32,000 bases of DNA from Candidatus Jordarchaeales archaeon (lineage in GTDB: Archaea > Asgardarchaeota > Jordiarchaeia > Jordiarchaeales > Freyrarchaeaceae). The notes under the pieces are model-generated. The model did no database searches and was not told where the DNA came from. It worked only from the letters and a program-made list of their open reading frames with translations. Of this stretch, positions 1,914-32,000 are shown piece after piece. The position numbers and the translations under genes are program-made. Positions within the stretch are counted from its first letter, which is position 1, and each line of letters begins with the position of its first letter. Location: assembly GCA_038889235.1 (NCBI GenBank), contig JAWAHN010000003.1, positions 203,703 through 235,702 on the forward strand, in the 5' to 3' direction.

Positions 1914-2068
1914 TCACACCCAACTAGAACTTGAAAGGAGAGAGATAAAAACTTAAAGTAGATTCTCTTAGGAAACGTGAGCCCACCGCTCGTGTTATGC
2001 GCGTTAAGCTGCACAGGTTTCTCGGGCGCCAAGTGTGATAAACGGCGGTCGTCAACCGCCTAGACACG

Positions 2069-8574: not shown

Positions 8575-9981
8575 TTGTCTTCTGATATGGTTTCCCTTCC
8601 AGAAGAGATTGTTGAAGCTCTTAGCCGTAGAGGGGGGTTCAGCCTTCTAGTTAAGGGTGATCCAGGATCCGGGAAAACTATTTTCGCGTTAAGTGTTTGC
8701 AATGCTTTCAGCAAATCCTATGAATGCTTCTACGTGACTTCAAGGTCCACGGCTGACGAAATCAAAAGGTATTACCCAATAGTGGAGAAGTTTTTTGACG
8801 AGAGGAGAGTTATAGATGCGACGGAAAGTAAAGCTGAAGTCAAGCTTGAAACCGCCATTTCGCTGAGAATGTATGACAAACCCTCGTTTCTTCAAAGACT
8901 TTACTCCATAATTCACTCCACAATTGGAGCCGAAAAGAGAGCACCACTAGTAGTCGTAGACAGTTTGGAAGCATTAAAGGAGAGCATGAAGCTTGCTAGG
9001 GACGACTCAAGCCTCGAGGACGCATTAATAGACATAGCTAGAGAAACTGAGGGGAAAATTCTTTTCGTTTCGGAGAGCGCGGAGAAATCGTTCTTAGATT
9101 ACTTGGTCGACGGGATTGTAACTCTCAGAAAGGAGGAAGATAACGGTCACTTGTTAAGGTTTATCAAAATAGAGAAGCTGCGCGGCATCAAAGTAGTGCG
9201 GCCTACCTATTTGTTCACTCTTGAGGGAGGAATATTCAACGCTACACGCTTTGAAGCATTCTCTATGACGCAAAAAATCATTCAAAGCAACGAAAAATTT
9301 GAACTAATATACCGTGAGCCAACCATTAAAGGGCGTGTTTCGACAGGAATAAGGCAACTCGATGAGCTAATTGGAGGATACATTAAAGGAAGCCTCAACC
9401 TCATAGAAGTAGCAAAAGGGGTTGGAGAATTTTACGACTACTTTTACCTGCCAACAGTGATAAACCACGTTATCAGTGGAGGAAAAGTGGTTATAATTCC
9501 TCCAGGAGGGCTCTCCGCGTCTTTCATAAGGCACGTCTTAACGAGGATTCTACCTGAAGCCAGCGTTAGGAACAACATCACCATAGTAAAGTACATGTAC
9601 GGGGAAGAGAGCGATACGACTATGCTTAAAGGAAAGAACCTTCTTGAGGACGCCGAATTCTTCTTTAGACAGCTCGGGGAAGAAGGGCTTATCGTGTTTG
9701 GAATGGACACGCTTCAACACGTATACGGACTAGACGAGCTAAAGAGATCCCTTGGACGACTGGTAGCCAGGATTAAGCACGACAAAATAGTTGCAGTTGG
9801 AATAGTTAAGTACGGGCAAGAGATCATAGACCTGCTTAACCACCTAGCCGATACACACCTAATGGTCAAGAATGTTAACGGAAACATAATTGCCTACGGC
9901 ATCATACCGTGCACACCAGCCTTATACCCCCACCTTGCAAAAGGAAGAATCTTGGAGGTAAATCTAACAGCCATAATATGA
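8575..9981 (+). CDS. GvpD-like KaiC/RecA-superfamily ATPase (intact N-terminal P-loop, degenerate second domain)
   Basis: FSLLVKGDPGSGKT, FYVTSR, VVVDSLEAL and IEKLRG in domain 1. Second domain starts VSTGIRQLDELIGG but has no Walker A. Start TTG 8575 or ATG 8587. Confidence 0.82.
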   Translation: MSSDMVSLPEEIVEALSRRGGFSLLVKGDPGSGKTIFALSVCNAFSKSYECFYVTSRSTADEIKRYYPIVEKFFDERRVIDATESKAEVKLETAISLRMYDKPSFLQRLYSIIHSTIGAEKRAPLVVVDSLEALKESMKLARDDSSLEDALIDIARETEGKILFVSESAEKSFLDYLVDGIVTLRKEEDNGHLLRFIKIEKLRGIKVVRPTYLFTLEGGIFNATRFEAFSMTQKIIQSNEKFELIYREPTIKGRVSTGIRQLDELIGGYIKGSLNLIEVAKGVGEFYDYFYLPTVINHVISGGKVVIIPPGGLSASFIRHVLTRILPEASVRNNITIVKYMYGEESDTTMLKGKNLLEDAEFFFRQLGEEGLIVFGMDTLQHVYGLDELKRSLGRLVARIKHDKIVAVGIVKYGQEIIDLLNHLADTHLMVKNVNGNIIAYGIIPCTPALYPHLAKGRILEVNLTAII

Positions 9982-10103
9982 AAATTTCGCAACCAAGAGC
10001 GACTTGCAATCGAAACAACAGTTCAAGTGCACGTCTCCCCCAGCAACATGAAATTAAAGCTGCTGAAAGACTATCATGCAAAAGTGCACCACGTTGACGC
10101 TTC

Positions 10104-10133
10104 AAAGGAGGAGCACAACCTCCTTTTTCTTTC
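10104..10133 (+). terminator. Hairpin plus T-rich tract after the GvpD-like gene
   Basis: AAAGGAGG(10104-10111)-agcacaa-CCTCCTTT(10119-10126) is an 8-bp perfect stem, followed by TTCTTT. Confidence 0.4.
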
Positions 10134-10160
10134 CCTCAATTCTTTATTCTCTATTAACTT

Positions 10161-10192
10161 TTTTAATATAAAGTATAAGGTATATATATTGA
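10161..10192 (+). promoter_or_regulatory. TATA-rich promoter for the KaiC-like gene
   Basis: ttttaatataaagtataaggtatatatattga lies directly upstream of the ORF. Confidence 0.45.
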
Positions 10193-10244
10193 AGTGCATC
10201 TGAAGTTATTTGTAGTTGAAACGGCTGTTGGGTGGAAGGGGCTC

Positions 10245-11609
10245 TTGAAGTCTGGTATCAGGGGTCTGGACGATGTGGCGGGTGGTTTTCCGGATAGGGG
10301 GATTGTGGTTATTGCTGGTGGCCCGGGGATAGGTAAGACTGTGATGGCTGCTCAGTTCGTCTATAATGGTGCGGTCATGTTTGGCGATAGGGGGGTTTAC
10401 GTTAGCTTTTCTGAGTCTAAGGAGGAGTTTTACGGTAACATGCTTGCCTTTGGCATGGATTTCGACGAATTGGAGAGGAAGGGGTTGTTTCGCTTTCTCA
10501 GCCTTATGATCTTGGGTGGAAAAAACTCGTTTACGCGGTGTATGGATGAAGTATTTGAGTCTATTGCTGCTATTAAGGCTAAGCGTGTGGTTTTAGATTC
10601 GATAAACGCTGTAACATTCGCGATGAGCGACGAAGAGGCTAGGCGCTTCGCCAATGTTTTGAGGACGCTTATGAAGAACATGGACGCTGTCTGCTTTCTG
10701 GTGTACGAGACTTCGAGTGAAGTTAAGAGCGAGGAGCTTGGGCCCATAGCTTTCGCAGCCGACATGGTTTTACTTTTGAGGTGGAAGGAGGAGGAAGGTG
10801 TGAAGGTGAGGGAGCTCGAGCTATTGAAGACTAGAGGGGCCCCGGTGGAGAAGGCGTCCTACGAGTTTGACGTTGACAGGGAGCATGGTGGAGTATGGGT
10901 GATCGCGCTGCCGAAAAGCATACCCGACGTGGGAAGTGAAGTGGTGTCTACTGGTTTAAACTGGTTTGACAGCGCTGTAGGTGGAGGGTTAAGGCGGGGG
11001 AGCCTCACGCTGATTAAAGGTGAGACAGGGTCAGGCAAAACTTGTCTCAGCGCTCAGATAGCTATCGGTATAGCTAGTGCTGGGAAACGGTGTGTCTACG
11101 TTTCAACTGAGGACGGAGAGAGCGTGGCGAGGATCATTAAGGGATTCAACCCCGACGCGGAGCTGGAGGACGAACGGCTGAATGTGGTGAGCATTGTTCC
11201 AGAGGAGTATGGGGTTCAGAGGATATACAGTTTCTTCGACAATATAGTGCGCAAGAGGAGGCCCGACTTGCTCGTAATAGACAGTTTGACGCCGTTCAAG
11301 CACAGCCTCCCACAGGCGAGACTTTACAAGTTTCTAAGGTTCCTCCAACTTCTGGCAAGGGTTAACGGCTTGATCGTGATAGCTACACTCACCCTCTCAT
11401 TAATAGAGGAGGCCCTTGAAACAGATATTCTAGGACTCTTCGACAACATGCTGATACTGAGAAACATGCCAACGGACGGGGCGCCTCACAGGCTACTGTT
11501 CATAGTTAAGGTGAGGGGGAGCGATCACAGGAAGACACCTATTCGGCTTGAAGTGACAAGCAAGGGGGTAACGTGCGTAAGCGAGGAAAGCCTCATGCCA
11601 GCAATTTAA
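10245..11609 (+). CDS. KaiC-family double-domain ATPase (RAD55/KaiC-like)
   Basis: Two RecA-fold domains: GGPGIGKT/VVLDSIN/LLKTRG and GETGSGKT/LVIDSLT/IVKVRGS. TTG 10245 (MKSGIRGLDD) preferred because the track GTG at 10194 abuts the TATA region. Confidence 0.88.
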   Translation: MKSGIRGLDDVAGGFPDRGIVVIAGGPGIGKTVMAAQFVYNGAVMFGDRGVYVSFSESKEEFYGNMLAFGMDFDELERKGLFRFLSLMILGGKNSFTRCMDEVFESIAAIKAKRVVLDSINAVTFAMSDEEARRFANVLRTLMKNMDAVCFLVYETSSEVKSEELGPIAFAADMVLLLRWKEEEGVKVRELELLKTRGAPVEKASYEFDVDREHGGVWVIALPKSIPDVGSEVVSTGLNWFDSAVGGGLRRGSLTLIKGETGSGKTCLSAQIAIGIASAGKRCVYVSTEDGESVARIIKGFNPDAELEDERLNVVSIVPEEYGVQRIYSFFDNIVRKRRPDLLVIDSLTPFKHSLPQARLYKFLRFLQLLARVNGLIVIATLTLSLIEEALETDILGLFDNMLILRNMPTDGAPHRLLFIVKVRGSDHRKTPIRLEVTSKGVTCVSEESLMPAI

Positions 11610-17300: not shown

Positions 17301-19859
17301 TTACACTATGCTTTTCTCCCTGATGTACTCTTCTGTTATGGTTGTTTCTTCTCCTTTGATTATTTTTCTAAGTGAGCTTATTGCTCCCGGTTTTGAGAGG
17401 GGTTGGTTGTTTGAGCCGCACTGCCATGAGTGTGTGCAACGTGGGCAGCCGCTCTCGCTCTCGCACCCGCATTCTTCAAGTATGTTTAACGCCCTCTTGA
17501 AAGCTTCTTCCAGTCGATTGTAAAGTAGTAGGGATATTCCGTTTCCTCCCGGGCAGGCGTCGTACGCGAATATTACACCTGATGTTCCCATAGAGATGCC
17601 GCCCACTTCGCCACTGCCTCCCCCGGTGAGCATGTTGCTGCTCTCCAGCACAACGTGTTCCACGGCGTGGAAGCTTCCAGCTAGGAACAGGTCGACATCT
17701 TTCTCTGACATTTCCCCTTCAAGGTCGGGTTGCGGCGCCCTGAAAACTATTCCCAACGTGTCGAAGGAGTATTCTATGGGTTCAGCCAGCGGCTCCATTG
17801 TCACGATTTCGTCGCTCAGTATTTCCCTCACCACGTATTGATCGACGACCTGGGTTACGTTAAGCTTGCAGTAGAGGGCTTCGACGCCGAACACCTTTTT
17901 CCGCTCCATGGTTTCCAGTATTTCTGGCTGTGAGTGGAAGAGGGCTTGAGTCCTGTAAGGGTAGTCGTCTGGGAGGGGTTCAACTTCAGCAATTCCGACG
18001 CCCCCCTTGAACTTGAAGGACTTTGAAAGGTAGTTTCGCCCACCATGCATGTAGACGGCGTTCGGGAAAAGCTCTCTAGCAGCGAAGGGCATCTCCCTCT
18101 CCCCTATCCTCCTCTTTCCCTCGTATATCTCGACGACCTCCCCGATCCCCCTTATGTTGTACCTAGCAGTCTTTTTGCGCGCTTCACGGGTGGCGTAAAG
18201 CAAGCCGCCGCGCTCAACGAGTAAGCCCTCCCTCTTCAGCTTCTCTATCACTGGCTGGAACTCCTGAAACTCTCCGGGGCTCAGCGGCTTATCCATGGCT
18301 GCGAAGAGTATCTGGTACTCTGCGACCACGGGGTTTCCCGGCTCCACGTAGGCTGGGTCTACGTCTGAAAAGTAGGTTTCCGGGTGGTTCTTGTAGTATG
18401 TACTCATGGGATCCTCGTCCCTCAGCGCGACCACGCAGATGCTCTCTTGCCCCTTCCTGCCCGCGCGTCCAATCCTCTGAAGGAAGCGGGTGTACCCGGT
18501 GATCATGGAAACAACGGCGTCCAAGTCGCCTATATCTATGCCGAGCTCAAGTGTCGGCGTAGCGATAATGCACTTAGCTTCGCCCTGCTTAAACTTCTTC
18601 TCAACCTCCCTCCGGTGCTCCTCTGGTAGCCCGCCCCTGTGTATTAGCACGTTGAGACCTCTCCGCCTCGCTATCCTGAATATTGTTTCAGCGTCCTTGT
18701 GCGTGTTAGCGAAGACCAAGGTTTTCAGCCCAGCTCCAATGCACTTTGCCAGCGCGTCCACTATCATAGTCCTGAAAGAGCGACCAGTTGGGTATAGCAT
18801 TACGAGGTGCATTCGTCCCCTCTTCCCCTCACTGCACTTGACCACTTCCACATTCCCGTCGACGAGTCGGGCCCAGAATTCTTCCGGGTTGCTTATCGTC
18901 GCCGATGCACCTATGACTTGAAAGCCGCCGAAAATTCTCTTCATCCTCCGCAGTATGAAGTGAACGTTTGCCCCGAAAGCGCCAACATACTGGTGCACTT
19001 CGTCGAGAACGACGAACTTCGCAGTTGATATTATGCGGGCGAACTCGTCCCTCCTCTTAAGGTGGTAGTCTATCATGTCGAAATTCGTTATCAAGACGTC
19101 GGGCGGGTTTCCGTAGATCTTCCTCCTCTCATGCTGCGGCGTGTCCCCGTCGAGGACGGCGACAGTTATGCCCGCGTGTCTACCTAGAGCTTGAAGCTTC
19201 GCTAGTTGATCTCTGTTGAGGGCCTTAGTCGGGTATATGAAGAGAGCTGAGACCCCCCGCCTCTGGACTCTAAGCCCGCCGAACACTGCCCTTGACTGGA
19301 GTATCATGTGAAAGATGGGGAGCGCGAACGCCTCAGTTTTCCCCGTCGCGGTGGGAGCTACGATCAAAACGTTTTTTCCTTCGAGGATCCTGCTAATCGC
19401 CTCCTCTTGGAACTTGTAGAGCCTCTCTATCCCTGCTTTTCTGAGCGCGTGGACGAGTGGGGGTGCGAGCCCGCTGCTCTCTACGCTGACACCCTTGGAC
19501 GGCTCGACAGCCTTCCATAAGTCGTATTTCACGACGTAGTCCTGTCCTAGGAGGAGGTCCCTAACTACGGGGGGAACCTCGTTGAACGTCAACCCAGCTC
19601 TCCTAAGCTCCTCTTCAATCGACCAGAGGGGGCGAATCAGACCCAGCTCCTCTAACCTCGCTTTTCCTAGCTCTTCCACAACCCCCCTTTCTAAGGCTTC
19701 TTGCAGCTCGATGAACGCCTTAACCCTGCTATCGGCTTCACTGGACGTTACGAAGCGTAGTCCACAGGACGTGCAGTAAACAAGGTAGCCTCCGGAGTCC
19801 AGTTCGCGGAACATTAGGTCCTCGCCGCATCTAGGACAGGGATACAAGGAGCCCACCAA
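17301..19859 (-). CDS. SF2 DEAD/DEAH-box helicase, Hrq1/MrfA(YprA)-type, with C-terminal DUF1998 Zn domain
   Basis: APTATGKT, YPTKAL, LDEVH, SAT, TLELGIDIGD, QRIGRAGR. C-terminal C.CESESGCPRC..SWQC. N-terminal Zn ribbon CPRC...CTSC. Confidence 0.9.
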   Translation of the reverse strand: MVGSLYPCPRCGEDLMFRELDSGGYLVYCTSCGLRFVTSSEADSRVKAFIELQEALERGVVEELGKARLEELGLIRPLWSIEEELRRAGLTFNEVPPVVRDLLLGQDYVVKYDLWKAVEPSKGVSVESSGLAPPLVHALRKAGIERLYKFQEEAISRILEGKNVLIVAPTATGKTEAFALPIFHMILQSRAVFGGLRVQRRGVSALFIYPTKALNRDQLAKLQALGRHAGITVAVLDGDTPQHERRKIYGNPPDVLITNFDMIDYHLKRRDEFARIISTAKFVVLDEVHQYVGAFGANVHFILRRMKRIFGGFQVIGASATISNPEEFWARLVDGNVEVVKCSEGKRGRMHLVMLYPTGRSFRTMIVDALAKCIGAGLKTLVFANTHKDAETIFRIARRRGLNVLIHRGGLPEEHRREVEKKFKQGEAKCIIATPTLELGIDIGDLDAVVSMITGYTRFLQRIGRAGRKGQESICVVALRDEDPMSTYYKNHPETYFSDVDPAYVEPGNPVVAEYQILFAAMDKPLSPGEFQEFQPVIEKLKREGLLVERGGLLYATREARKKTARYNIRGIGEVVEIYEGKRRIGEREMPFAARELFPNAVYMHGGRNYLSKSFKFKGGVGIAEVEPLPDDYPYRTQALFHSQPEILETMERKKVFGVEALYCKLNVTQVVDQYVVREILSDEIVTMEPLAEPIEYSFDTLGIVFRAPQPDLEGEMSEKDVDLFLAGSFHAVEHVVLESSNMLTGGGSGEVGGISMGTSGVIFAYDACPGGNGISLLLYNRLEEAFKRALNILEECGCESESGCPRCTHSWQCGSNNQPLSKPGAISSLRKIIKGEETTITEEYIREKSIV

Positions 19860-20046
19860 TTGAATGAAGGCGGACGAAAACTAAAAATTCTTTCCAGAAA
19901 GCAACCGGGGGCCGGCAGTCCCGCTGAGCTGCTTTCACCTTTCAGCTTCAGAAGAGTTTAAGAAACTTGTGCAGTGGTTTTTTAAGCAGCGAGATGTTAA
20001 TTGATGATTAAAGGAGCGTTTGCGAGAAGCACATCTGGGTGGTCTA

Positions 20047-23000
20047 ATGGCTGACGGGGTGTTTGCCGGGCTTTGTCCTTCGTGTGGAGGGGATTTAACG
20101 CTCGACGAGGTTGAGTTAATGACGTGCAAGAATACGGGTGCCCGACTATGCATGTTCGACATAGACCAGGAGTTCAAAGAGTTCCTCGAGTTCTTCAGGG
20201 TTGCTGTCGGCGCCAATCCCCGCGCTTTTCAAAGGCTGTGGGCTAGACGTATTTTGAGGGGGGAGAGCTTCGCCGCTGTAGCTCCAACCGGAACCGGTAA
20301 GACCTCCTTCGGCGCGGCTATGGCCCTATTCTTAGCGGGAAGGGGGCTTAAATCGTATTTGATAGTTCCAACCACGCTTCTCGTGAGACAGGTTGTAGAA
20401 ACTCTTAACGAGTTTATGGAGAGAACGGGCGTTAAGGTGGACTTGATATGGTACCACTCCGGGTTGAGGGGGGAGGAGAAGGAGAGGTTCTTCAGGTCAC
20501 TCTCAGAAGGGGGCTTCCAGATACTTGTGACCACATCCCAATTTCTTTCAGCCCACTTTAGTAAACTCAAGGGGAACGTGTTCAACTTTCTTTTCGTCGA
20601 CGACGTCGACTCCGTCCTTAAGGCTTCGAGGAACGTTGAACGCCTCCTCACGCTCCTAGGCTTCGAGGTGGTTAACGGCAGATGGATGGGTGAGCCCGCC
20701 GGAGTCTTAATGGTTTCAACGGCGACCGCGAAAACTGGTGGTAAAGTTGTGCTTTTCAAGAAGTTGCTAGACTTCGACGTAGGTAGCTCGAGCTTCGAGG
20801 TAAGGAACATAGAGGACGTGTACTTTGGCAGGAAGAGCCTGGATAACTTATTGAGTACTGTGAAGTTGATGGGCGGAGGAGGGATAGTCTACTGTTCATC
20901 TTCTGAGGAGGCAGAGCACGTCATGGAGTTCCTAAACGCTAACGGCATCAGGGCTGGTTTCGTCGGAGTTAGGAGCAAAAAAGACTTCGACGAGTTCTGC
21001 CGCGGCGAGCTCGACGTGCTGGTTGGGGCAGCGTACTACTACGGGCTCCTGGTTAGGGGCTTAAATCTCCCGGAGAGGGTTAGGTACACGGTGTTCTACG
21101 GGGCCCCCTTCTTCCGCGTCAGACTAGTAGACTTAGACTCTGCTTCGACGAGGTTACTTAGAGTTCTTGCCGGAATATTCAAGGACGATGAACGGTTGAA
21201 GCCTTACATTGCAAACGTGGAGAAGTACGCGGAGAAAGTGCGCACCATACTCAAGGAAAACTTTCCAGAGATGAAGCCGAGCGTTGACGACGTCGTGGTT
21301 AGGGAGAACGAAATCCTCCTTCCGGACGTGAGGACGTACATTCAGGGGTCTGGGAGAGCTTCCCGCCTCCACGCCGGGGGGATAACGAAGGGTGTATCCA
21401 TACTGCTCGAGGATGAAAAGCTCGCCGGCGCCTTCATCAAGAGGGCAAGCTACTACGATATCGAGTTCAAGGGGAAGGATGAGGTCGACTTTGAAAGGTT
21501 GAAGGAGGAAGTTGACCGCTCGAGGAGAGAAGTAAGAGTGTCTGAAGTAGAGCTGGTGAGACCCGCCCTCTTCATAGTTGAGAGCCCGACTAAGGCGAGA
21601 CAAATAGCACGGTTCTTCGGGCAGCCGAGCATGAAGGTTTTCAGGGACAAGAACGGCGAAGTGGTTCTTATCGCCTACGAAGTAGCCACCGGGAAGTACG
21701 TAATGACCGTGACCGCCTCCCTGGGGCACATAGTCGACCTGGTTAGGGATAGAGGGTTTTTCGGCGTGCTCGTCGAGGAAAATCACAGGTATATCCCAGT
21801 TTACGGTGCAATCAAGAGGTGCAGGGGTTGCGGTTACCAGTACGTTGGGGAAGGCGTCTGTCCAAGGTGCGAGGGAAGGGACGTCGGAGCCCCTATTGAC
21901 TCTAAGTCGAGGATAGAGGTCCTCAGGAGGCTTGCAAAGGATGTTGAGCTAGTCATAGTGGGCACAGACCCCGACGCTGAAGGAGAGAAAATAGCATGGG
22001 ACCTAAAGGTCCTCCTCAAGCCGTGCGCGAGGGAAATTAAGAGAGCTGAGTTCCACGAGGTCACGAAGAAAGCGGTGATTCAAGCACTAAACCAGCTTAG
22101 GGATGTGGATGAGAAGCTTGTGGAGGCTCAGATAGTCAGGAGAGTGGAGGACAGGTGGGATGGCTTCTCCCTCAGCAGAAAACTGTGGGATCGTTTCAGG
22201 GACTACAATCTTTCTGCTGGAAGAGTACAGTCGCCAGTCCTAGGCTGGATAATAAAGAGGGCTGAGGAAAGCAGGAAGAAGAGGCCTGTAACCATTGTGG
22301 ACGAGCTATCACTGGTCATAGACGGGCTGGCGAGCAGAGAACCCATGCTCGAGATAAAGCTCTTGGAGAGGAGGGTTGAAAAACAGACTCCACCGCCGCC
22401 ATACACAACCGACATGCTTCTTAGGGACGCGAACGCCATTCTAAAAATCCCAGTTGACAGGACCATGCAACTCGCGCAGGACCTCTTCGAGAACGGCTTG
22501 ATAACTTACCACAGGACTGATAGCACTAGGGTGAGTGAGAGGGGGCTTGCCGTCGCGAAAGAGTACCTAAAGGAGGAGTTCACGCCGAGAACGTGGGAGG
22601 CTGAAGGAGCACATGAGGCGATAAGGCCGACTAGGCCGCTTGACAGAGTGAGCCTCGTGCGGCTCATCGAGGAAGGAGTCATAGGGCTGTCCATGGAGCT
22701 CACCCCAAGCCACCTCGCACTGTACGACCTCATATTCAGGCGGTTCATGGCTTCGCAGTGCCCACCTGTCAAAGTGGTCAAGGATGTTTACAGGGTTGTC
22801 GCCGACGGTGTTGAAACCACAGAGGTCAGAGTGATCGAAGCCGAGGGTAAAGCATACCAGCTCTACAAATACATGCTACCCCCGATCAAGCCCCCGCTGC
22901 CTGAAGGCATGCGGAAGGTTAAAGCGAGAGTGCTACGCCTGCCAAAAGAACCATTGTACACGCAGTCAGATGTCATCAGGCTAATGAAAGAGAAAGGGAT

Positions 23001-23307
23001 AGGTAGACCGTCAACGTACGCCACCATAATCCAAAAGCTCCTCATAAGGGAGTACGTTAGAGAGGTTAAGAAGGGGAAGCTTATACCCACGGAAAGGGGT
23101 GTGGAAGTGTATAACTACCTCAACCAGCACTACGGGAAGTTCATTTCGGAGGAGCGGACGAGGCAGCTTGAGGAGAAGATGAGCATGATAGAAAAAGGTC
23201 TGCTCAACTACCAGGAGGCGCTGGACGAGATATACCACGAAGTGAGGAGCCAGATACTCCCGGTAGGAGAGGAAGCACGAATACCAACATCTACCTCGCC
23301 AGAGTAG
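20047..23307 (+). CDS. rgy: Reverse gyrase (single polypeptide)
   Basis: ATG 20047 after GGGTGGT. N-terminal Zn finger CPSC...C..C, helicase motifs APTGTGKT/DDVD/STAT/QGSGRASR, Toprim IVESPTKA and TDPDAEGE, second Zn finger CRGC...CPRC, SAGRVQ, catalytic ITYHRTDS, GIGRPSTY. Confidence 0.97.
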   Translation: MADGVFAGLCPSCGGDLTLDEVELMTCKNTGARLCMFDIDQEFKEFLEFFRVAVGANPRAFQRLWARRILRGESFAAVAPTGTGKTSFGAAMALFLAGRGLKSYLIVPTTLLVRQVVETLNEFMERTGVKVDLIWYHSGLRGEEKERFFRSLSEGGFQILVTTSQFLSAHFSKLKGNVFNFLFVDDVDSVLKASRNVERLLTLLGFEVVNGRWMGEPAGVLMVSTATAKTGGKVVLFKKLLDFDVGSSSFEVRNIEDVYFGRKSLDNLLSTVKLMGGGGIVYCSSSEEAEHVMEFLNANGIRAGFVGVRSKKDFDEFCRGELDVLVGAAYYYGLLVRGLNLPERVRYTVFYGAPFFRVRLVDLDSASTRLLRVLAGIFKDDERLKPYIANVEKYAEKVRTILKENFPEMKPSVDDVVVRENEILLPDVRTYIQGSGRASRLHAGGITKGVSILLEDEKLAGAFIKRASYYDIEFKGKDEVDFERLKEEVDRSRREVRVSEVELVRPALFIVESPTKARQIARFFGQPSMKVFRDKNGEVVLIAYEVATGKYVMTVTASLGHIVDLVRDRGFFGVLVEENHRYIPVYGAIKRCRGCGYQYVGEGVCPRCEGRDVGAPIDSKSRIEVLRRLAKDVELVIVGTDPDAEGEKIAWDLKVLLKPCAREIKRAEFHEVTKKAVIQALNQLRDVDEKLVEAQIVRRVEDRWDGFSLSRKLWDRFRDYNLSAGRVQSPVLGWIIKRAEESRKKRPVTIVDELSLVIDGLASREPMLEIKLLERRVEKQTPPPPYTTDMLLRDANAILKIPVDRTMQLAQDLFENGLITYHRTDSTRVSERGLAVAKEYLKEEFTPRTWEAEGAHEAIRPTRPLDRVSLVRLIEEGVIGLSMELTPSHLALYDLIFRRFMASQCPPVKVVKDVYRVVADGVETTEVRVIEAEGKAYQLYKYMLPPIKPPLPEGMRKVKARVLRLPKEPLYTQSDVIRLMKEKGIGRPSTYATIIQKLLIREYVREVKKGKLIPTERGVEVYNYLNQHYGKFISEERTRQLEEKMSMIEKGLLNYQEALDEIYHEVRSQILPVGEEARIPTSTSPE

Positions 23308-25357: not shown

Positions 25358-26113
25358 TTACGTGGAGGAGAGGACGGGTTGCCTCTGTCCGGCAAGCTCG
25401 CGGAGAAGCCTCAGTACAGCCAGCCCGCTCCTCGTAAGCACATACCTCCCCCTAGGTTTTTCTTGTACTACGAAGCCCGCTTCAACAAGCTTGCTGAGGT
25501 GAAACTGCAAGTGGCCCCCCCTCATGCTTGTTGCCCGCTCAAGGTCTGCGAAACTTCTTCCTCCCCTTGAGAGAACTTTGAGAATCCTTATCCGCATAGG
25601 ACTCGACAACGGGGGTAGTAGTTCTGCAATCTTGTCCTCCTCAACCTCGTCGAAGCCGCCAGGCTCCCCGAAGAGAAACTTCACGTTACTTACAGGCCGC
25701 CTCGATCGCTTGATGAGCTCCTCAACCGCCTTGAAAACCCTAGCAGCGTTTTTCAGGCACTTCTCATCTGGGCAGTCCTTAACGTGTTTCTCCAAAGCTT
25801 CAAGGTGCCTCTTGACTTCCACAAGCGCGTCCTCCACCCCCCTATCTGCAACCACTTGGAGCACTTTAAACGCGGCTTTCTCCACCCTTCTAACGCAGAA
25901 GTCCCTTAGACTGCAAGTAGAGACCCCAGCCTTGAAAGCGCTCAAACCCTCATTTACCTCCAGAGATATCTGAGATAACAGCTCCCTCTCAGCCGCCCTC
26001 GCGCCAACCACTTCAAGCATAGCGGTAAGTTGGAGGAGGAGGTCGTGAATGGATCTAACATTCCTCAGTAATTCATCTAGCTTTATGTTGAGCCCGTTGA
26101 GGAGAGACTCCAT
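25358..26113 (-). CDS. ArsR-type winged-helix regulator with N-terminal four-Cys domain
   Basis: ATG 26113 after GGGGAGGTG (the track start at 26242 runs through the promoter). Cys motifs CSLRDFC and CPDEKC. C-terminal wHTH LSSPMRIRILKVL...FADL...RGGHLQFHLSKLVEAGFV...GRYVLT. Confidence 0.87.
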   Translation of the reverse strand: MESLLNGLNIKLDELLRNVRSIHDLLLQLTAMLEVVGARAAERELLSQISLEVNEGLSAFKAGVSTCSLRDFCVRRVEKAAFKVLQVVADRGVEDALVEVKRHLEALEKHVKDCPDEKCLKNAARVFKAVEELIKRSRRPVSNVKFLFGEPGGFDEVEEDKIAELLPPLSSPMRIRILKVLSRGGRSFADLERATSMRGGHLQFHLSKLVEAGFVVQEKPRGRYVLTRSGLAVLRLLRELAGQRQPVLSST

Positions 26114-26157
26114 GCAGTGCACCTCCCCGGGTGTATGGCTAACGATAGGACACTGTA

Positions 26158-26195
26158 CTATATAAAAGTGTAGTAAAAAGGATACTCTTATATAG
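26158..26195. promoter_or_regulatory. Back-to-back divergent TATA boxes
   Basis: CTATATAA (26158-26165) is the exact reverse complement of TTATATAG (26188-26195), so each strand has a TTATATAG box facing its own gene. Confidence 0.55.
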
Positions 26196-26240
26196 AAGTG
26201 GGCGCTGTGCTTCGTGTAGTGCTTCCGACGGGTGAGGTGC

Positions 26241-27347
26241 ATGCACCACTCGCACCACTTGGAGGTTTATGAGAAGCTGAGGGAGAAGCTCAACAAGGCT
26301 CCTATAGGAATGCCTAAAACTGTTAGCGGGGTGGAAAGAGAGATTCTCAGCGTCCTTTTCGACGAGGAGGAGGCACGGATCGCTGTTCACATGCCCTTCA
26401 TACCTTTCACTGTTGAGCAGCTGGCGGAGAGGACGGGGAAGAGTGTTGAGTATTTGGAGAAGCTGCTGAACGAGATGGCGAGGAAGGGGACTGTTTGGAA
26501 GGGTGAGAGAGACGGAAAGGTCCACTACAGGCTTTTCCCCGTTATAGTTGGGCTCTCGGAGATGCCCTTCCTTCCAGGTCCTGGCAACGACCCGCGTCAA
26601 GAGAAGCTTGCCCCACTCTATGCGAGGTATTGGAGAGAGGGATTTCTAGACGAGATTGGAGATAGGAAGTATGCTGTGATGAGGGCGCTTCCCGAGAGGA
26701 GCGTGGTTAAAGAGGCTGAAATACTTCCGTACGATGATGCCGTGAAGCTTGTTAGGGAGCGTGACTTCCACGCGGTCGGCTATTGCCCTTGCAGGATAGT
26801 TGCAAGGCTTAACGGGGAGGGGTGTAGGCGCTCCCTGGAGAACTGCCTCCACTTCGGGTCCCTAGCTAGGTACATGGTGGAGCACGGGTATGCAAGGAGG
26901 ATAACGGCGGACGAGGCTATCGAAATTCTGAGGAGAGCGAACAGGGAGGGGCTGGTGCACACCACGGAGAGGAGTAAGGGGCCTATAAGCACAATTTGTA
27001 ACTGTTGCAGTGACTGCTGCGTGTTTTTCAGGGCAATCCACGAGGCGAAGCATCCAAACACTATAGCGCACTCGAGCTACGTTGCAAGCGTTGACCCGTC
27101 TAAGTGCATTGCCTGCGGTATTTGCGCGCTCCGCTGCCCTATGAAGGCTGTGAAAGTTAAGGTTAACAGGAAGCCTGCGAGCGTGAACGTGAAGAAATGC
27201 CTTGGATGCGGCGTGTGCGTGCCTACCTGCCCGGTTGAAGCCATAGAGCTTGTTGGAAGAGAAGAGCTCCCAGACGTACCCGACCATAAGACGTACCTGC
27301 TACAGCTACTCGAAGACAGGGGGAAAGACTTCTCATCTCTCCTCTGA
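26241..27347 (+). CDS. 4Fe-4S binding protein, CNCC-type (N-terminal HTH-like region + 2x[4Fe-4S])
   Basis: ATG 26241 after GGTGAGG. Motifs YCPCR..C...C, ICNCCSDCC, CIACGICALRCP and CLGCGVCVPTCP. Confidence 0.88.
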   Translation: MHHSHHLEVYEKLREKLNKAPIGMPKTVSGVEREILSVLFDEEEARIAVHMPFIPFTVEQLAERTGKSVEYLEKLLNEMARKGTVWKGERDGKVHYRLFPVIVGLSEMPFLPGPGNDPRQEKLAPLYARYWREGFLDEIGDRKYAVMRALPERSVVKEAEILPYDDAVKLVRERDFHAVGYCPCRIVARLNGEGCRRSLENCLHFGSLARYMVEHGYARRITADEAIEILRRANREGLVHTTERSKGPISTICNCCSDCCVFFRAIHEAKHPNTIAHSSYVASVDPSKCIACGICALRCPMKAVKVKVNRKPASVNVKKCLGCGVCVPTCPVEAIELVGREELPDVPDHKTYLLQLLEDRGKDFSSLL

Positions 27348-27470: not shown

Positions 27471-30400
27471 TCACTTTATGGACGCCAGGTTCCCTATGAG
27501 AACCCATGGGAGCTCTTCCGGAGACTTTATGACTTTTAGTATGCTTGCAGCTGAGCACATTTCCTTGAGATGTCTGGGTTCTCTGCCCATAGTTATGTAG
27601 ACGACCCTTATACCCTTGCTCTCCGCTTCCTCTATTGCCACTTTCACGTCTGGTATAGCGTTCTCCTCTTGCTCGTAGCCTTCTGGTTCCCCGTCCGAGA
27701 ACACGAACATTATCTTTGTTTTAGCCTCGCGTTTAAGGAGCTCCTCGTAAGAGTACCTTATCGGTGCCCCCATTCTCGTTAGCCCCCCACTTCTCACGGC
27801 TCCAACCCTTTCCTGGATGGTGGCTGTCCACGGCTCATCAAAGTCCTTTGCTATGTATATCCTAGCCTTTCTGCCCTCCGTGTTGAACGCGTATATCGCG
27901 AACTTGTCTCCTAAAGCGTTGCACGCGTCGCCGAAAAGTATCGCTGAGATCTTCAGGCTGTTTATTATCCTGCTCGTCGACCCACTTGCGTCTATTAAGA
28001 GGACTGCGGCGACGTCCCTCGAGTCCCTGTGAATTTTGTCGAATATCCTCTTCTCTCTGCGGTCACAGTGCGCGTCCACTATGCCGTCCATGTTGAGCTC
28101 GCTTCCATCCAGGACGCGCCTCTCCACCTTGAACTTTCTTGGAACTATCTTTTCGAGCTCGTTAATCAACTGCTGCCTCACGTAAGAGTACTCGTACAGG
28201 GACGGGATCGGGGCGCCCTTCTGGATTCGTATCTCATCCACGTTTATCCAAAGTGAGTACGTCTTAAACTGCTCATCCCACTCTGGAACCTTCCTCATGC
28301 TGTGGGCTTCCTCAGCTTCCTCGATGGTCGTCTTGCACACCCTGGCTGTCAGCTGCTCAGCGTATTTCTCTTTCAGCTCTTGGAGCTTGTCTGTGCTAAA
28401 CTCCTCGGATGGGATCACCGACTCCTGGTTCTCAGAAGACTCCATGTCGCTTTCAGCCTGCTCGCTTTCAGGCGGCTCGGGAATGTAGTCCTTTAGCAGC
28501 TCTACGAGTTTGAGAGAGGTTTCAACGGAGTCTAGTACTGTTCCACCCTTAACCCGCTCCGCTTCTTTCACCGCCTGCTCAATGAGCTCACTGTACTTTT
28601 CCAATTCAATCTTTTCAAGCTCTATGTAGGCTTTCGCCCTTTGAACGGACCACCCTTTCTTCTCGAGCAAATCCTGCTTCAGCAACTCTTCTAGGTGTTC
28701 GCCTTTAGTCTTGCCGTGAACTATCTTTTCCAGCACTAATTCTAGGAGTGGTGACGGGCTGCTCTGTATGGTCCTCTTCCTAAGGTTGAAGAGGTTAACC
28801 GTCCTGACAAGTGGTTCTAGCTCGCTAAACTCCCTGATCAGGTGGTCTTCGCACCTGGCGTCTTCAAGCGCCGTGAATATCACCGTGGCAAGCCACGAGT
28901 GACCAGTTTTCTTGAATTCCTCGTAAAGCTTTGAGAGTGGGATCGCGAAGCTCCCATACCTTATGTGGCTTACAGCGTGGAGTGCTCCGTAAAGGTAGAG
29001 GAGCATGTTTCTTTCCTTGTCGGGGAACTCGTTTATCACCGATGGTAGGTATATGTGCTTTCCGTCGCTTCTAGGCCCGTCCTTGCTTGGAACTATTGGT
29101 ATAGAGCCGCATAGCGGCGTCAACCACGCCATGAGATCGCCTTTCACGTCGTTAAGGTGCAAGCCGCCCTTGAGCCAGCCCACTGGGTTGGCGAATATAG
29201 CGAGAAGCTCACTTTTGTCTAGGTCCGTGATTCTCTTTTCAAGCATCGATATGTAGAGTGACAGTAGGTCTGGCTCGTCGAACTGCTGCACGGAGGCGAG
29301 GAAGGCTTCGCCTAACCCTATCCCTTCAAGCAATTGGAATATTCCAGCAGCCTTCAAAACTTGTTTTACACTTTTTATCGGGGCCTGAAGAAGGAAGTCC
29401 ATGAGGGGCGGTCTCTTCTCTATTATTGACATTACGCTTTTCAGGTGTGTTATCCCTTCTCTCTTGTACTTGTCAATGAACTTCTTTATGGTCTGGTAGC
29501 CCATGCTGCTGAGGTTGCCGAGCCGCCCTATTAGTGAAACTATCTCCTTGCTTGTGACTTCATCTATCTCCTTGTTTGAAAGGATCTCTTCCAGTCTCTT
29601 CCTTACGCTGAAACGCTTATCGTCGCTCAGGACCTTTACTTCATATGTTATGGAGAGTATGTCGCTGCTTGTAATCTTCTTCAGCTTCGGGTTGGATATT
29701 ATCTCGAGGATGGTGTTGTAGCCTGTGTCGTTGAGGTACTTGAGCTCCCATATGAGCTCTGCTAGGTCGTCTGGCTCCACTTGGACTATCTTCGGGTTTA
29801 GTATGACGTTTCTTATACGCTCCCTGAAGTCTAGGGGCTTAACGATGCGGTGCCTCCTCAGCCTGCTGGCTAAGGCGAGCAGGTGTTTCCCCTCTATCTT
29901 TGAGAGCACGTTGCTTTCAAGTATCTCTAGCAGTATCTCGTAGCCCTCATCTGTGAGCTCTTCGAACTTGTCGACGAACTCTAGCAGGTTGTTCTCGTTT
30001 CCTATTTCGACCTTGGGGTTACTCAGTATTCTGATGAGGATAGAGTAGTACTTGTCGCCGAGGCGGGAGAGCTGGCTTATGAGCTTGAGCAGCAACCCAC
30101 CTTCGAGCGAAGCGACCTTGGAAGCTGAAAGCACCTCTTTAAGCCTGTGCATGACCAAGTTGAAGGTCTCATTGCTCATGTCTCTTATCTCCGCTATTAT
30201 CCAAGCAAGGTTGTTTCCACCTATCTCGGTCACGTGGTTTGACGAGAAAACTTCTAGAAGTCTCTTGTACCTGTCCTCCCCCAACAGTTTTAGCCCCCTT
30301 ATTAGCGAGGGAATGCTGTTCCCCTCGACTTTGTTGACGCTGTCTAGCAATAGCAGTTCGCTCAACCTCTTCTCCAGGACTTTGATCTCGCTGTCATCGA

Positions 30401-30944
30401 GCTGCGCGACTTCCGACACTAGGAGGGGGATACAATAACTGCTGATCTGGGTGAACTTACTCCTCGAGAGGAGGAACTTCAGGAAATCTTTGTGTTGCTC
30501 TGAGAGCTTGCCGCACTCCCTGAAAGTGCTAGGGAGGTCGCGTCCATCTATTGAGCTAACGGCAAGCTCGCCCAGCATCTGTCTTAGGAAGAACTCCACT
30601 GAGACGCTTTTCTCGCCGAGCCTCTCCACCTCGTAGAGCAACCTTATAATGTTTCGTTCACCAACGCTGCCTACCTTGGGGTTCTCAATTATTCTAGCGA
30701 TAATGTTTCGTTGAACCCTGGTGAGGTTCTTAAGCTTGTGGGCGAACTCCACAAGCACCTCTAACGAGGTGAACTTGACTTTCCCGCCTTCAATTATTCT
30801 CCTTACATCTTCCACTATTTCCGACCCAAAGGACTGAAGTAAAATATCCAGAGCTCTATCTATGTCAAATCCGGAAGAAGTGTTCTCAAACTCTCTTCTC
30901 AAGCTCCTAAACCTCTCAAACGTGGCATAAACCTCCTTCAACAC
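27471..30944 (-). CDS. CbbO/NorD-type VWA (MIDAS) protein with a large N-terminal helical-repeat extension
   Basis: SDGKHIYLP...LEDAR, PEWD...Y..W, DGSELNMDGIV, RDVAAVLLIDASGST (MIDAS DxSxS), GLTRMG and FSDGEP. About 590 extra N-terminal residues precede these motifs. Confidence 0.88.
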   Translation of the reverse strand: MLKEVYATFERFRSLRREFENTSSGFDIDRALDILLQSFGSEIVEDVRRIIEGGKVKFTSLEVLVEFAHKLKNLTRVQRNIIARIIENPKVGSVGERNIIRLLYEVERLGEKSVSVEFFLRQMLGELAVSSIDGRDLPSTFRECGKLSEQHKDFLKFLLSRSKFTQISSYCIPLLVSEVAQLDDSEIKVLEKRLSELLLLDSVNKVEGNSIPSLIRGLKLLGEDRYKRLLEVFSSNHVTEIGGNNLAWIIAEIRDMSNETFNLVMHRLKEVLSASKVASLEGGLLLKLISQLSRLGDKYYSILIRILSNPKVEIGNENNLLEFVDKFEELTDEGYEILLEILESNVLSKIEGKHLLALASRLRRHRIVKPLDFRERIRNVILNPKIVQVEPDDLAELIWELKYLNDTGYNTILEIISNPKLKKITSSDILSITYEVKVLSDDKRFSVRKRLEEILSNKEIDEVTSKEIVSLIGRLGNLSSMGYQTIKKFIDKYKREGITHLKSVMSIIEKRPPLMDFLLQAPIKSVKQVLKAAGIFQLLEGIGLGEAFLASVQQFDEPDLLSLYISMLEKRITDLDKSELLAIFANPVGWLKGGLHLNDVKGDLMAWLTPLCGSIPIVPSKDGPRSDGKHIYLPSVINEFPDKERNMLLYLYGALHAVSHIRYGSFAIPLSKLYEEFKKTGHSWLATVIFTALEDARCEDHLIREFSELEPLVRTVNLFNLRKRTIQSSPSPLLELVLEKIVHGKTKGEHLEELLKQDLLEKKGWSVQRAKAYIELEKIELEKYSELIEQAVKEAERVKGGTVLDSVETSLKLVELLKDYIPEPPESEQAESDMESSENQESVIPSEEFSTDKLQELKEKYAEQLTARVCKTTIEEAEEAHSMRKVPEWDEQFKTYSLWINVDEIRIQKGAPIPSLYEYSYVRQQLINELEKIVPRKFKVERRVLDGSELNMDGIVDAHCDRREKRIFDKIHRDSRDVAAVLLIDASGSTSRIINSLKISAILFGDACNALGDKFAIYAFNTEGRKARIYIAKDFDEPWTATIQERVGAVRSGGLTRMGAPIRYSYEELLKREAKTKIMFVFSDGEPEGYEQEENAIPDVKVAIEEAESKGIRVVYITMGREPRHLKEMCSAASILKVIKSPEELPWVLIGNLASIK
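29487..30803 (-). repeat. Protein-level tandem repeat: 12 units of 35/38/39 aa in the VWA protein (aa 48-486)
   Basis: Manual alignment gives consensus xxILSNPKVxxIxxxxLxxLIxELxxLxDxGYxxI. Unit lengths are 35,38,35,39,35,39,35,35,39,35,39,35. The repeats are not obvious at DNA level. Confidence 0.8.
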
Positions 30945-31148
30945 TTAAATGTAGTAGAGGGCGTTGCGAGGAGAAGTAGAACACAGTCGCCGGTAGAGTA
31001 TTAAAGCCAAGAGAATGGTGGTTCAGGGGTAAGGCTTGTTTCCGGGCGGCCTTCGATGGGCGCCCCACAGTTCCACGTCCCATAAACCAGAGGAGGGTGC
31101 TCGGTATAAATACATTTTGGTAAGAATGCCTCATGTGCCCGCGGCGAC

Positions 31149-32000
31149 TTATATCCCTTCAAGGGTTTCTAGGGGGATCTTCCTAAGGCCGACGTAGTAC
31201 GCCACAGCTTCAACTATCTTTCTAACCTCGGTCGCCTGTGAGGGTTTAAGGTTCGCGCTGAGGTTGTCGGCAACGCGCTCAACGCTCTCGTTCAAGGCGT
31301 CTCTTTCACCGAACAACTTGTAGGTTTCAAGGTACGCGTCGATCGCCTTGTGGAGTATTCTCTGCGTTGGACACCTTATCTGCCCAGGGGCTAGCTTCTG
31401 GTGTAGGAACGAGGAAATGAGGTCTGCAAGCTCCACGTTTTGAAGCTGTATGGTTCCATACTCGTATACTTGTCTGAGCTTGTCGACGAGGTCGGCTATC
31501 TTCCTCATGTTGGAGATGTGCTCCTCGAGCCCAGCTTCCTCCATGAGCTTGTCACTGTACTCCTTAGGCACATTCTGAACAGCGACGTACGAAAAGCTCG
31601 GCTCTTCGTCAACCTTCTTCTCCTTGAAGTCGCGCCAGCACCCTGAGTCCCACACCATTGGGATAAACTCTTTCTCACCCAGCCATATTCCACGGTACTG
31701 CACTGGGCCGTTCAGTTTCGACGCCTCCATCGCCATCTCCTCAAACTTCTCCTGTTTCACCTTCCTCGTCTCGACGAGGGAGATCAAAAGTTGAACTTCA
31801 ACCTCGTGGTACTTGAACTTGAGAGTGTTAAACCTGTCGAGCGCTGGCTCAGGCATCTGCGAGCCTACTCTCCCGATCTCCGTCGGGTTATAAGATACGA
31901 TTATCATGTAGTCAGTTCCACCGATTTCCTCGCCGTTTGGAAGCAAGCCACGCCTCCTAGTGTCAAGCCAGGGGAAAAGCGTTGGCCATATTTCAGCCCT
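31149..32000 (-). CDS. MoxR-family AAA+ ATPase, CbbQ/NorQ-like (5' part beyond window)
   Basis: Frame is open to base 32000 (RAEIWPTLFPWLDTRRRG). Contains MIIVSYNP and sensor/arginine-finger ALDRF. Immediately upstream of a CbbO/NorD-type VWA gene. Walker A/B lie outside the window. Confidence 0.78.
   Translation of the reverse strand, partial: RAEIWPTLFPWLDTRRRGLLPNGEEIGGTDYMIIVSYNPTEIGRVGSQMPEPALDRFNTLKFKYHEVEVQLLISLVETRKVKQEKFEEMAMEASKLNGPVQYRGIWLGEKEFIPMVWDSGCWRDFKEKKVDEEPSFSYVAVQNVPKEYSDKLMEEAGLEEHISNMRKIADLVDKLRQVYEYGTIQLQNVELADLISSFLHQKLAPGQIRCPTQRILHKAIDAYLETYKLFGERDALNESVERVADNLSANLKPSQATEVRKIVEAVAYYVGLRKIPLETLEGI

Follow-up and report, generated by a model that had tools for sequence, protein, structure and literature searches.

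A probable NorQ/NorD-kind AAA+/VWA remodelling pair with a solenoid-bearing adaptor in a family of Asgard archaea

To our knowledge, MoxR-class AAA+/VWA pairs are widespread, yet the client has been established for no more than a few of them (Rubisco, cNOR and CobN, with LdcI/Frd for RavA-ViaA), which raises the question of what kind of machine is encoded where such a pair stands by no visible client. A case of this type is found at the end of a 32,000-nucleotide stretch of DNA (the window; G000:C3:203703-235702) from a Candidatus Jordarchaeales archaeon, whose 2.14 Mb genome is assembled in 8 contigs and whose class, the Jordarchaeia, belongs to the Asgard archaea (Promethearchaeati). Here, a CbbQ/NorQ-like ATPase gene precedes, on the same strand, a gene for a long VWA protein, and the 204-bp gap between them given in a preliminary description of the sequence (31148-30945) was confirmed. 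That description took the two proteins to be a remodelling machine, and a MoxR-class motor-adaptor pair is indeed supported by their domains, motifs and matches to NorQ/NorD and CbbQ/CbbO. The pair is probably a stand-alone, strongly diverged AAA+/VWA remodelling machine of the NorQ/NorD-CbbQ/CbbO kind, confined to its own family as far as has been searched. The layout of the adaptor is that of NorD/CbbO plus an added solenoid; whilst the kind of machine is already known, what is new here is an arm of ~470 amino acids (aa), composed of 13 helical hairpins, that is fused before the N-domain.

The window closes within the ATPase gene, and reading the contig past position 32000 recovered the N-terminus of the protein. 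The complete gene (L002:3852-5024, equivalent to window positions 31149-32321) encodes 390 aa, with an AAA_5 domain (PF07728) recognized by Pfam at residues 27-164 (E-value (E) 3.5e-20). This domain harbours a Walker A motif (GLPGTGKT, 32-39), a Walker B motif (IFYIDE, 98-103), a sensor-1 region (SYNP, 143-146) and an Arg-finger region (DRF, 162-164). In a MAFFT alignment that includes CbbQ, NorQ and the ATPases of five related pairs, the helix-2 insert, the pre-sensor-1 insert, sensor 1 and the Arg finger appear to align with their counterparts in CbbQ and NorQ. A sequence search of the PDB returned CbbQ (5c3c; 63 bits, E 2.4e-16) and NorQ (9qh4; E 2.9e-15) as the best solved relatives; the NorQ matches score 59 and 56 bits, midasin follows with 40 bits (E 1.8e-9) and CobS is absent among the matches. 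A feature search of the ESM Atlas recovered generic AAA_5 clusters only.

For the VWA protein, Pfam reports the VWA domain (residues 981-1132) and nothing else, and NCBIfam gives no match. NorD is the sole type of match in a PDB sequence search (E 5e-21 and 2e-17), and an exhaustive HMMER search of 1.8 billion representatives yielded 3404 relatives, with a single full-length cluster, which is Jordarchaeal. About 100 of the best 150 matches align from residue ~590 to the end of the protein, a point that corresponds to about residue 115 in ordinary family members of 700-790 aa. Within this shared core, D627, L633, P634, N646, E694 and R697 are at least 90% conserved in the family alignment, and the MIDAS residues D985, S987, S989 and D1084 are invariant over 62 rows. 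An AlphaFold2 (AF2) model of the whole protein, with a mean predicted local distance difference test score (pLDDT) of 81.9, places a solenoid, a connector, the N-domain, a disordered linker, a hairpin and the VWA domain in that order (Table 1). The linker carries 18 D/E in its 60 residues, with an acidic stretch (EPPESEQ...) beginning at residue 823. Motifs and model together bear out the layout proposed in the preliminary description, namely a solenoid, a NorD/CbbO-type N-domain, an acidic linker and an intact MIDAS. When this predicted model was searched with Foldseek, the six best PDB matches were all NorD chains comprising VWA domain and finger, with template-modelling (TM) scores, normalized to the target, of 0.71-0.76; the best of these was 9qh6_G (E 3.8e-15, TM 0.76). 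Next in rank were the MIDAS domains of Rea1/MDN1 (E 3e-7 to 1e-5), followed by integrin-type I domains.

The solenoid that precedes this core is built of repeats of roughly 36 aa. Outside the Jordarchaeal orthologues, the exhaustive search found no sequence relatives of it but one 179-aa fragment. A separate model of residues 1-600 (pLDDT 80.1) gave weak PDB fold matches, to TAL effectors, TALE-derived editors and mTERF1, and AFDB matches to unnamed proteins with TM scores of up to 0.40; in the ESM Atlas, a shape search stayed below TM 0.5 and a feature search returned nothing usable. That the best PDB fold matches are to nucleic-acid-binding proteins (E 5e-4 to 0.2), together with their similar repeat period to the 33-39 aa seen here, would be compatible with a TALE/mTERF-type nucleic-acid-binding array and a machine that remodels a nucleoprotein complex. 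This is highly improbable, however, as the TM scores of 0.14-0.25 and root-mean-square deviations above 13 A are typical of any pair of two-helix solenoids, the repeats have a net charge of zero and a pI of 7.2, and no sequence-level repeat family was detected. The arm is a generic, lineage-specific two-helix solenoid, which may serve as a built-in platform that binds a client or partner. As such, it offers a handle for client fishing by pull-down or pairwise modelling.

How widely this machine occurs was assessed in 301 genomes of the phylum, comprising the window genome (G000) with four relatives of the same family and 296 genomes outside it. The NorD-like core is found only in the family, in the window genome and two of the four relatives, in addition to one marginal match to a VWA domain only. 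The two other carriers are a congener (G002) and a member of a different genus (G004), and in all three genomes the ATPase and VWA genes are adjacent, with identities of 84-86% and 72-79%, respectively. Searches of G001 (73% complete) and G003 (92% complete) did not recover the pair; in G003 the flanking PRTase is likewise not found and the region is possibly unassembled, so that absence there cannot count as loss. Word-index homologue searches with both proteins also retrieved Jordarchaeal orthologues only. On present sampling, the pair is thus restricted, as judged from sequence matches, to its own family, the Jordarchaeaceae. Beyond the lineage, the nearest relatives are ~33% identical across the VWA part and, where their context was read from the contigs of representative matches and from annotated plasmid references, they are two-gene units of an AAA_5+CbbQ_C ATPase and a long VWA protein that lie in varied contexts with no Rubisco or nor gene alongside.

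Comparison with the NorQ/NorD system, which inserts FeB into the cytochrome c-dependent NO reductase (PDB 9qh4-9qhg; PMC13036017, PMC9976466), gives the clearest picture of how such a pair may operate. In both cases the VWA adaptor gene comes after a gene for an AAA_5 ATPase, and both adaptors possess an N-domain with TDGxxIYLP-type and ExxRxE motifs, a flexible linker, a beta-hairpin finger and a complete MIDAS. For the VWA part, NorD is the best match in sequence and in fold. In the NorQD structures reported in 2026, the NorQ hexamer receives the NorD VWA finger in its pore, and a lid of NorQ is bound by the NorD N-domain. ATP-powered rotation stretches the unresolved linker joining the N-domain to the VWA domain, and a role in holding the client is proposed for the MIDAS (PMC13036017). 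By analogy, the 390-aa ATPase would form a hexameric ring, the beta-hairpin finger before the adaptor VWA domain would enter its pore and the NorD-like N-domain would dock on one of the ATPase lids. Rotation driven by ATP could then stretch the acidic linker of ~55 residues, whilst the MIDAS metal would bind an acidic residue of the target. The Jordarchaeal pair differs from NorQ/NorD in that no norCB genes are near it, its adaptor bears an extra N-terminal extension of ~590 aa, and its ATPase is longer (390 aa against ~270), has no match to CbbQ_C and reaches no more than 59 bits with NorQ. A model of one ATPase chain in complex with adaptor residues 590-1157, with alignments for both, scored 0.21 (mark 0.32) and speaks neither for nor against this arrangement.

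Several observations weigh against this assignment to the NorQ/NorD-CbbQ/CbbO kind. The ATPase is very divergent, with 63 bits to CbbQ where family members reach ~300. Pfam (E<=0.01) detects no CbbQ_C lid (PF08406) in it, and residues 170-390 are without detectable similarity to the lids of CbbQ and NorQ. A CbbQ-type lid shifted by an insertion to residues 285-390 was considered and dropped, the sequence test being not significant: segments 197-284 and 285-390 resemble the C-termini of CbbQ and NorQ no more than shuffled controls do. In a 16-row tree with two MoxR paralogues of the same genome as outgroup, a small sample in which long-branch effects are possible, a branch of length 4.4 leads to the Jordarchaeal ATPases, which form the sister group of a clade of CbbQ, NorQ and five orphan-pair ATPases. 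With the ATPase outside the CbbQ/NorQ clade, ring formation and engagement of the finger are therefore assumed. The VWA part similarly lies on a long branch (length 2.2) outside the canonical CbbO and NorD clades. Furthermore, no client gene was identified for the pair. Two V4R genes, the only conserved extra neighbours, adjoin it in two of the three genomes; in G004 they are missing from this place and the upstream side is occupied by two unrelated 116-aa genes. The double-V4R family to which they are related has five loci in the window genome and three in that of G004, most of which lie in unrelated surroundings.

The long form of the adaptor and the lack of an adjacent client have parallels in orphan CbbQ-like/VWA pairs of anaerobic bacteria, such as that with a 1472-aa VWA protein from Smithella sp. 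(NLN39179.1). These are also two-gene units with no client alongside, and their adaptors carry extensions of 400-900 aa before a NorD-like core, as does the Jordarchaeal adaptor. They differ in that their ATPases are canonical (~275 aa, AAA_5+CbbQ_C, ~300 bits to NorQ/CbbQ) and in that their extensions have no detectable sequence similarity to the Jordarchaeal solenoid. Since the nearest relatives are likewise without a client alongside, the absence of a visible client is common for the NorD/CbbO family.

The preliminary description had also pointed to a split-midasin-like layout, whilst cautioning that the parallel was architectural only and not shown homology. In an Asgard archaeon, this layout invites the idea that the pair is a split forerunner or relative of midasin/Rea1 in ribosome biogenesis, and midasin is indeed among the PDB matches of the ATPase (E 1.8e-9), with the MIDAS domains of Rea1/MDN1 next after NorD in the fold search. 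Both systems possess an AAA_5-type module, a MIDAS domain with a ring-entering loop and the order motor, linker, acidic region, MIDAS. Midasin, however, is a single chain of ~4,700-4,900 aa with six tandem AAA modules and the MIDAS domain, whereas here each 390-aa ATPase chain has a single AAA module and the MIDAS belongs to a separate protein, behind an acidic stretch of ~55 disordered residues. The order itself is present as described, but it is the standard plan of NorD and not a feature specific to this locus (PMC13036017). As the finger-in-pore arrangement is also found in midasin (PMC13036017), the resemblance is a property of the family. The earlier caution was apt. By bit score, a canonical CbbQ from a Nitrobacter carboxysome operon (467 and 295 bits to CbbQ and NorQ) scores 209 bits to midasin and an ATPase paired with a long orphan VWA protein (313 and 304 bits to CbbQ and NorQ) scores 184, compared with 40 for the Jordarchaeal ATPase. 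In addition, the VWA part has no midasin sequence match even at E<=10, and the adaptor core occurs in one family of the 301 genomes, so that on present sampling it is not an ancestral Asgard trait. No paper was found in the literature that links Asgard MoxR/VWA pairs specifically to midasin. With the layout family-wide and the ATPase among the least midasin-like members compared, the idea of a midasin origin is closed off, and descent of this kind is extremely improbable. Judged by sequence, the parallel is without evolutionary weight and reflects no special kinship; the midasin-like layout of an Asgard AAA_5/VWA pair is no evidence for an archaeal origin of midasin.

If the pair is a NorQ/NorD-kind machine, which protein might it act upon? 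As had been noted for the window, no rbc or nor gene is present, and this holds for the 17 kb beyond it as well: neither contains a Rubisco, nor or cob chelatase gene. Upstream of the ATPase, these 17 kb encode the two V4R proteins, a PRTase, HEPN-MNT modules, DUF998, an Asn-synthase-like gene, a ferritin and cobamide-salvage genes. The pair neither follows rbc, nor or cob genes nor falls within the CbbQ/NorQ or CbbO/NorD clades. No COX1/NorB-family gene was found in the genome. The preliminary description had suggested one of the neighbouring metalloproteins as the client, a proposal that synteny does not support: the 4Fe-4S protein gene beside the VWA gene (26232-27347, plus strand, 371 aa) and an ArsR-type gene (25358-26242, 294 aa) are an insertion relative to G002 and G004, being absent from that position in both.

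The same two-protein family includes the CbbQ/CbbO Rubisco activase (PDB 5c3c, 6l1q; for example that of the Nitrobacter hamburgensis plasmid carboxysome operon), and the organism has a Rubisco of its own, a single 441-aa RuBisCO_large gene on contig C1. This could make the pair a CbbQO-like activase of a form III-like Rubisco encoded elsewhere. Nevertheless, that reading is quite improbable. The Rubisco gene lies on a different contig beside unrelated genes, none of them an AAA or VWA gene; Rubisco is present in all five family genomes whilst searches of G001 and G003 did not recover the pair; and the adaptor core was not found in the 296 other genomes of the phylum. The Jordarchaeal pair is not by Rubisco or carboxysome genes, and neither does its adaptor group with CbbO nor its ATPase with CbbQ.

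It is also very unlikely that the pair is a MoxR-vWA-type system of conflict or defence, or the cargo of a mobile element, as might be supposed from the HEPN-MNT modules 2-4 kb upstream and from its patchy distribution within the genus. PADLOC matches no family beyond a P-loop-level similarity to IetA, phage relatives are absent, a conserved third gene of effector type is lacking and the GC content is unremarkable. The flanking PRTase, DUF998 and Asn synthase-like genes are, moreover, syntenic across two genera.

The most suggestive neighbours of the NorQ/NorD-kind pair are the two V4R proteins, the domain being named after BchJ. V4R_199 matches the N-terminal half of double-V4R proteins of ~400 aa (41%, E 6e-51) and V4R_185 the C-terminal half (40-42%, E 2e-44), such that the two represent a split form of the double-V4R protein. 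Their order ahead of the ATPase (V4R-V4R-ATPase) is kept in the congener G002. At a second locus, 140 kb from the pair, a 1232-aa CobN is encoded with a ChlI/ChlD AAA+/VWA fusion, a Cys-rich 4Fe-4S protein and two double-V4R proteins, and the 4Fe-4S protein beside the VWA gene is a 28% paralogue (E 1e-17) of the one found there. CobS/CobT, an AAA_5/VWA motor, and ChlI/ChlD resemble the Jordarchaeal pair in being the AAA+/VWA motors of class I chelatases with an acidic linker, and the CobN and ChlI/ChlD locus of this genome shares V4R and 4Fe-4S paralogues with the pair locus. Accordingly, the pair might be a motor and adaptor for cofactor or metal insertion tied to tetrapyrrole chelation, with V4R as carrier or sensor, possibly feeding or regulating a CobN-type chelatase or a similar enzyme. 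The shared V4R, AAA+/VWA and 4Fe-4S components of the two loci and the V4R-V4R-ATPase order conserved in G002 speak for this proposal, which is unlikely but conceivable. Against it, CobN already has its own adjacent ChlI/ChlD motor at a distance of 140 kb from the pair, and no CobN-like subunit is adjacent to the latter. Neither CobT_C nor Mg_chelatase is matched by the pair, the similarity of the VWA protein to CobT in the PDB being marginal (E 0.014). In G002 and G004 the pair stands without the 4Fe-4S gene alongside, and in G004 without the V4R genes as well; V4R pairs, moreover, occur in many unrelated contexts.

Nevertheless, for the NorQ/NorD-kind pair, the split double-V4R proteins are the best lead to a client, and they point weakly to the maturation of a cofactor or metal centre or to ligand gating of the motor. 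A link of the V4R proteins to the pair, through ligand sensing or cofactor carriage, is offered as a hypothesis held with low confidence. In a fuller version, which is decidedly unlikely, the pair would represent a distinct AAA_5/VWA branch in which target choice falls to the solenoid and ligand sensing or cofactor carriage to a heterodimeric split double-V4R, giving a four-component, ligand-gated maturation machine with a logic akin to that of class I chelatases. The repeated co-location of V4R, AAA+/VWA and 4Fe-4S components in one genome also provides a small hint as to the role of double-V4R proteins in Asgard archaea. A relation of V4R to the eukaryotic TRAPP/Bet3 fold has been published (PMC2253512, PMC10933270), in view of which the expansion of this family in an Asgard archaeon, with split and fused forms, may merit attention in its own right. 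Another split V4R pair, together with SelB/SepSecS selenocysteine genes, adjoins genes for two large proteins of 1024 and 644 aa (L042:432-5428; G000:C1:342431-347427) with no Pfam match, Ser/Gly/Thr/Asn-rich repeats and an N-terminal signal-like segment.

Table 1. Coordinates of the AAA+/VWA pair, of the segments of its adaptor and of the V4R and CobN-locus features (window positions unless a contig or locus is given).
Feature	Position	Strand	Details
AAA_5 (MoxR-class, CbbQ/NorQ-like) ATPase gene, C-terminal 283 codons	31149..32000	-	open at window edge
Spacer, ATPase gene to VWA gene	30945..31148	-	204 bp
NorD/CbbO-type VWA adaptor with N-terminal solenoid, whole gene	27471..30944	-	1157 aa
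Solenoid, aa 28-500	29445..30863	-	~13 helical hairpins of 33-39 aa; I-L-S-N-P-K-like turn recurring
Helical connector, solenoid to N-domain, aa 501-589	29178..29444	-	AF2 model
NorD/CbbO-type N-terminal domain, aa 590-820	28485..29177	-	SDGKHIYLP 626-634; E694, R697
Acidic disordered linker, aa 821-880	28305..28484	-	pLDDT <50 for 827-879; pI 4.05
Long beta-hairpin 'VWA finger', aa 881-906	28227..28304	-	AF2 strands 881-890, 895-906; conserved E888-W889
VWA domain with complete MIDAS, aa 907-1157	27474..28226	-	D985, S987, S989, T1056, D1084
V4R_199 and V4R_185 (199 and 185 aa)	L002:5203-6356, 500-1650 bases past window end	-	4-bp overlap; 178 bp from ATPase
Double-V4R proteins, two tandem copies by CobN and ChlI/ChlD	G000:C3:84789-87376 (L038:789-3376)		
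CobN-locus Cys-rich 4Fe-4S protein, 285 aa	L038:5587-6444	+	between CobN and ChlI/ChlD

The spacer between the two genes contains features of its own. A TATA-like sequence, AAAATGTATTTATA, is located at 31105-31118 on the minus strand and, ~23 nt downstream of it, a 25-nt block (TGGGACGTGGAA.TGTGGG..CCC; 31058-31082) is nearly invariant in the three genomes, whose flanks have diverged. A search of the spacer against Rfam gave no match, and the consensus fold of the three leaders, at -8.3 kcal/mol, is weak and drawn from three sequences. From these features, the VWA gene probably has its own internal promoter and a conserved leader, and the 25-nt block may be a leader or regulatory element. The VWA open reading frame spans 1157 codons from a GTG start, with an in-frame TAA directly upstream. 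The start is ambiguous between GTG at 30944, TTG at 30941 (codon 2) and TTG at codon 15 (window 30902-30944, minus strand); orthologue gene models begin at the equivalents of residues 16-32, and the window genome lacks the ATG used as a start by the VWA genes of G002 and G004. As the start possibly lies at codon 2 or 15, the spacer is possibly up to ~250 bp long.

Elsewhere in the window, a HerA-like (DUF87) ATPase of 609 aa is encoded beside a 639-aa protein without a Pfam match (84-3988, minus strand), and two proteins of these sizes are again found together in G002 (L019:8823-14725). Two adjacent KaiC/GvpD-like P-loop ATPases, of 468 and 471 aa, occupy positions 8575-11609 on the plus strand. 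An MrfA-like DEAD-box helicase of 852 aa, with a C-terminal MZB zinc domain and an N-terminal Lar-like zinc ribbon (17301-19859, minus strand), is encoded divergently from a reverse gyrase gene (20020-23307, plus strand) whose 1095-aa product combines helicase, Toprim and topoisomerase IA parts. The presence of reverse gyrase implies that the organism is a (hyper)thermophile.

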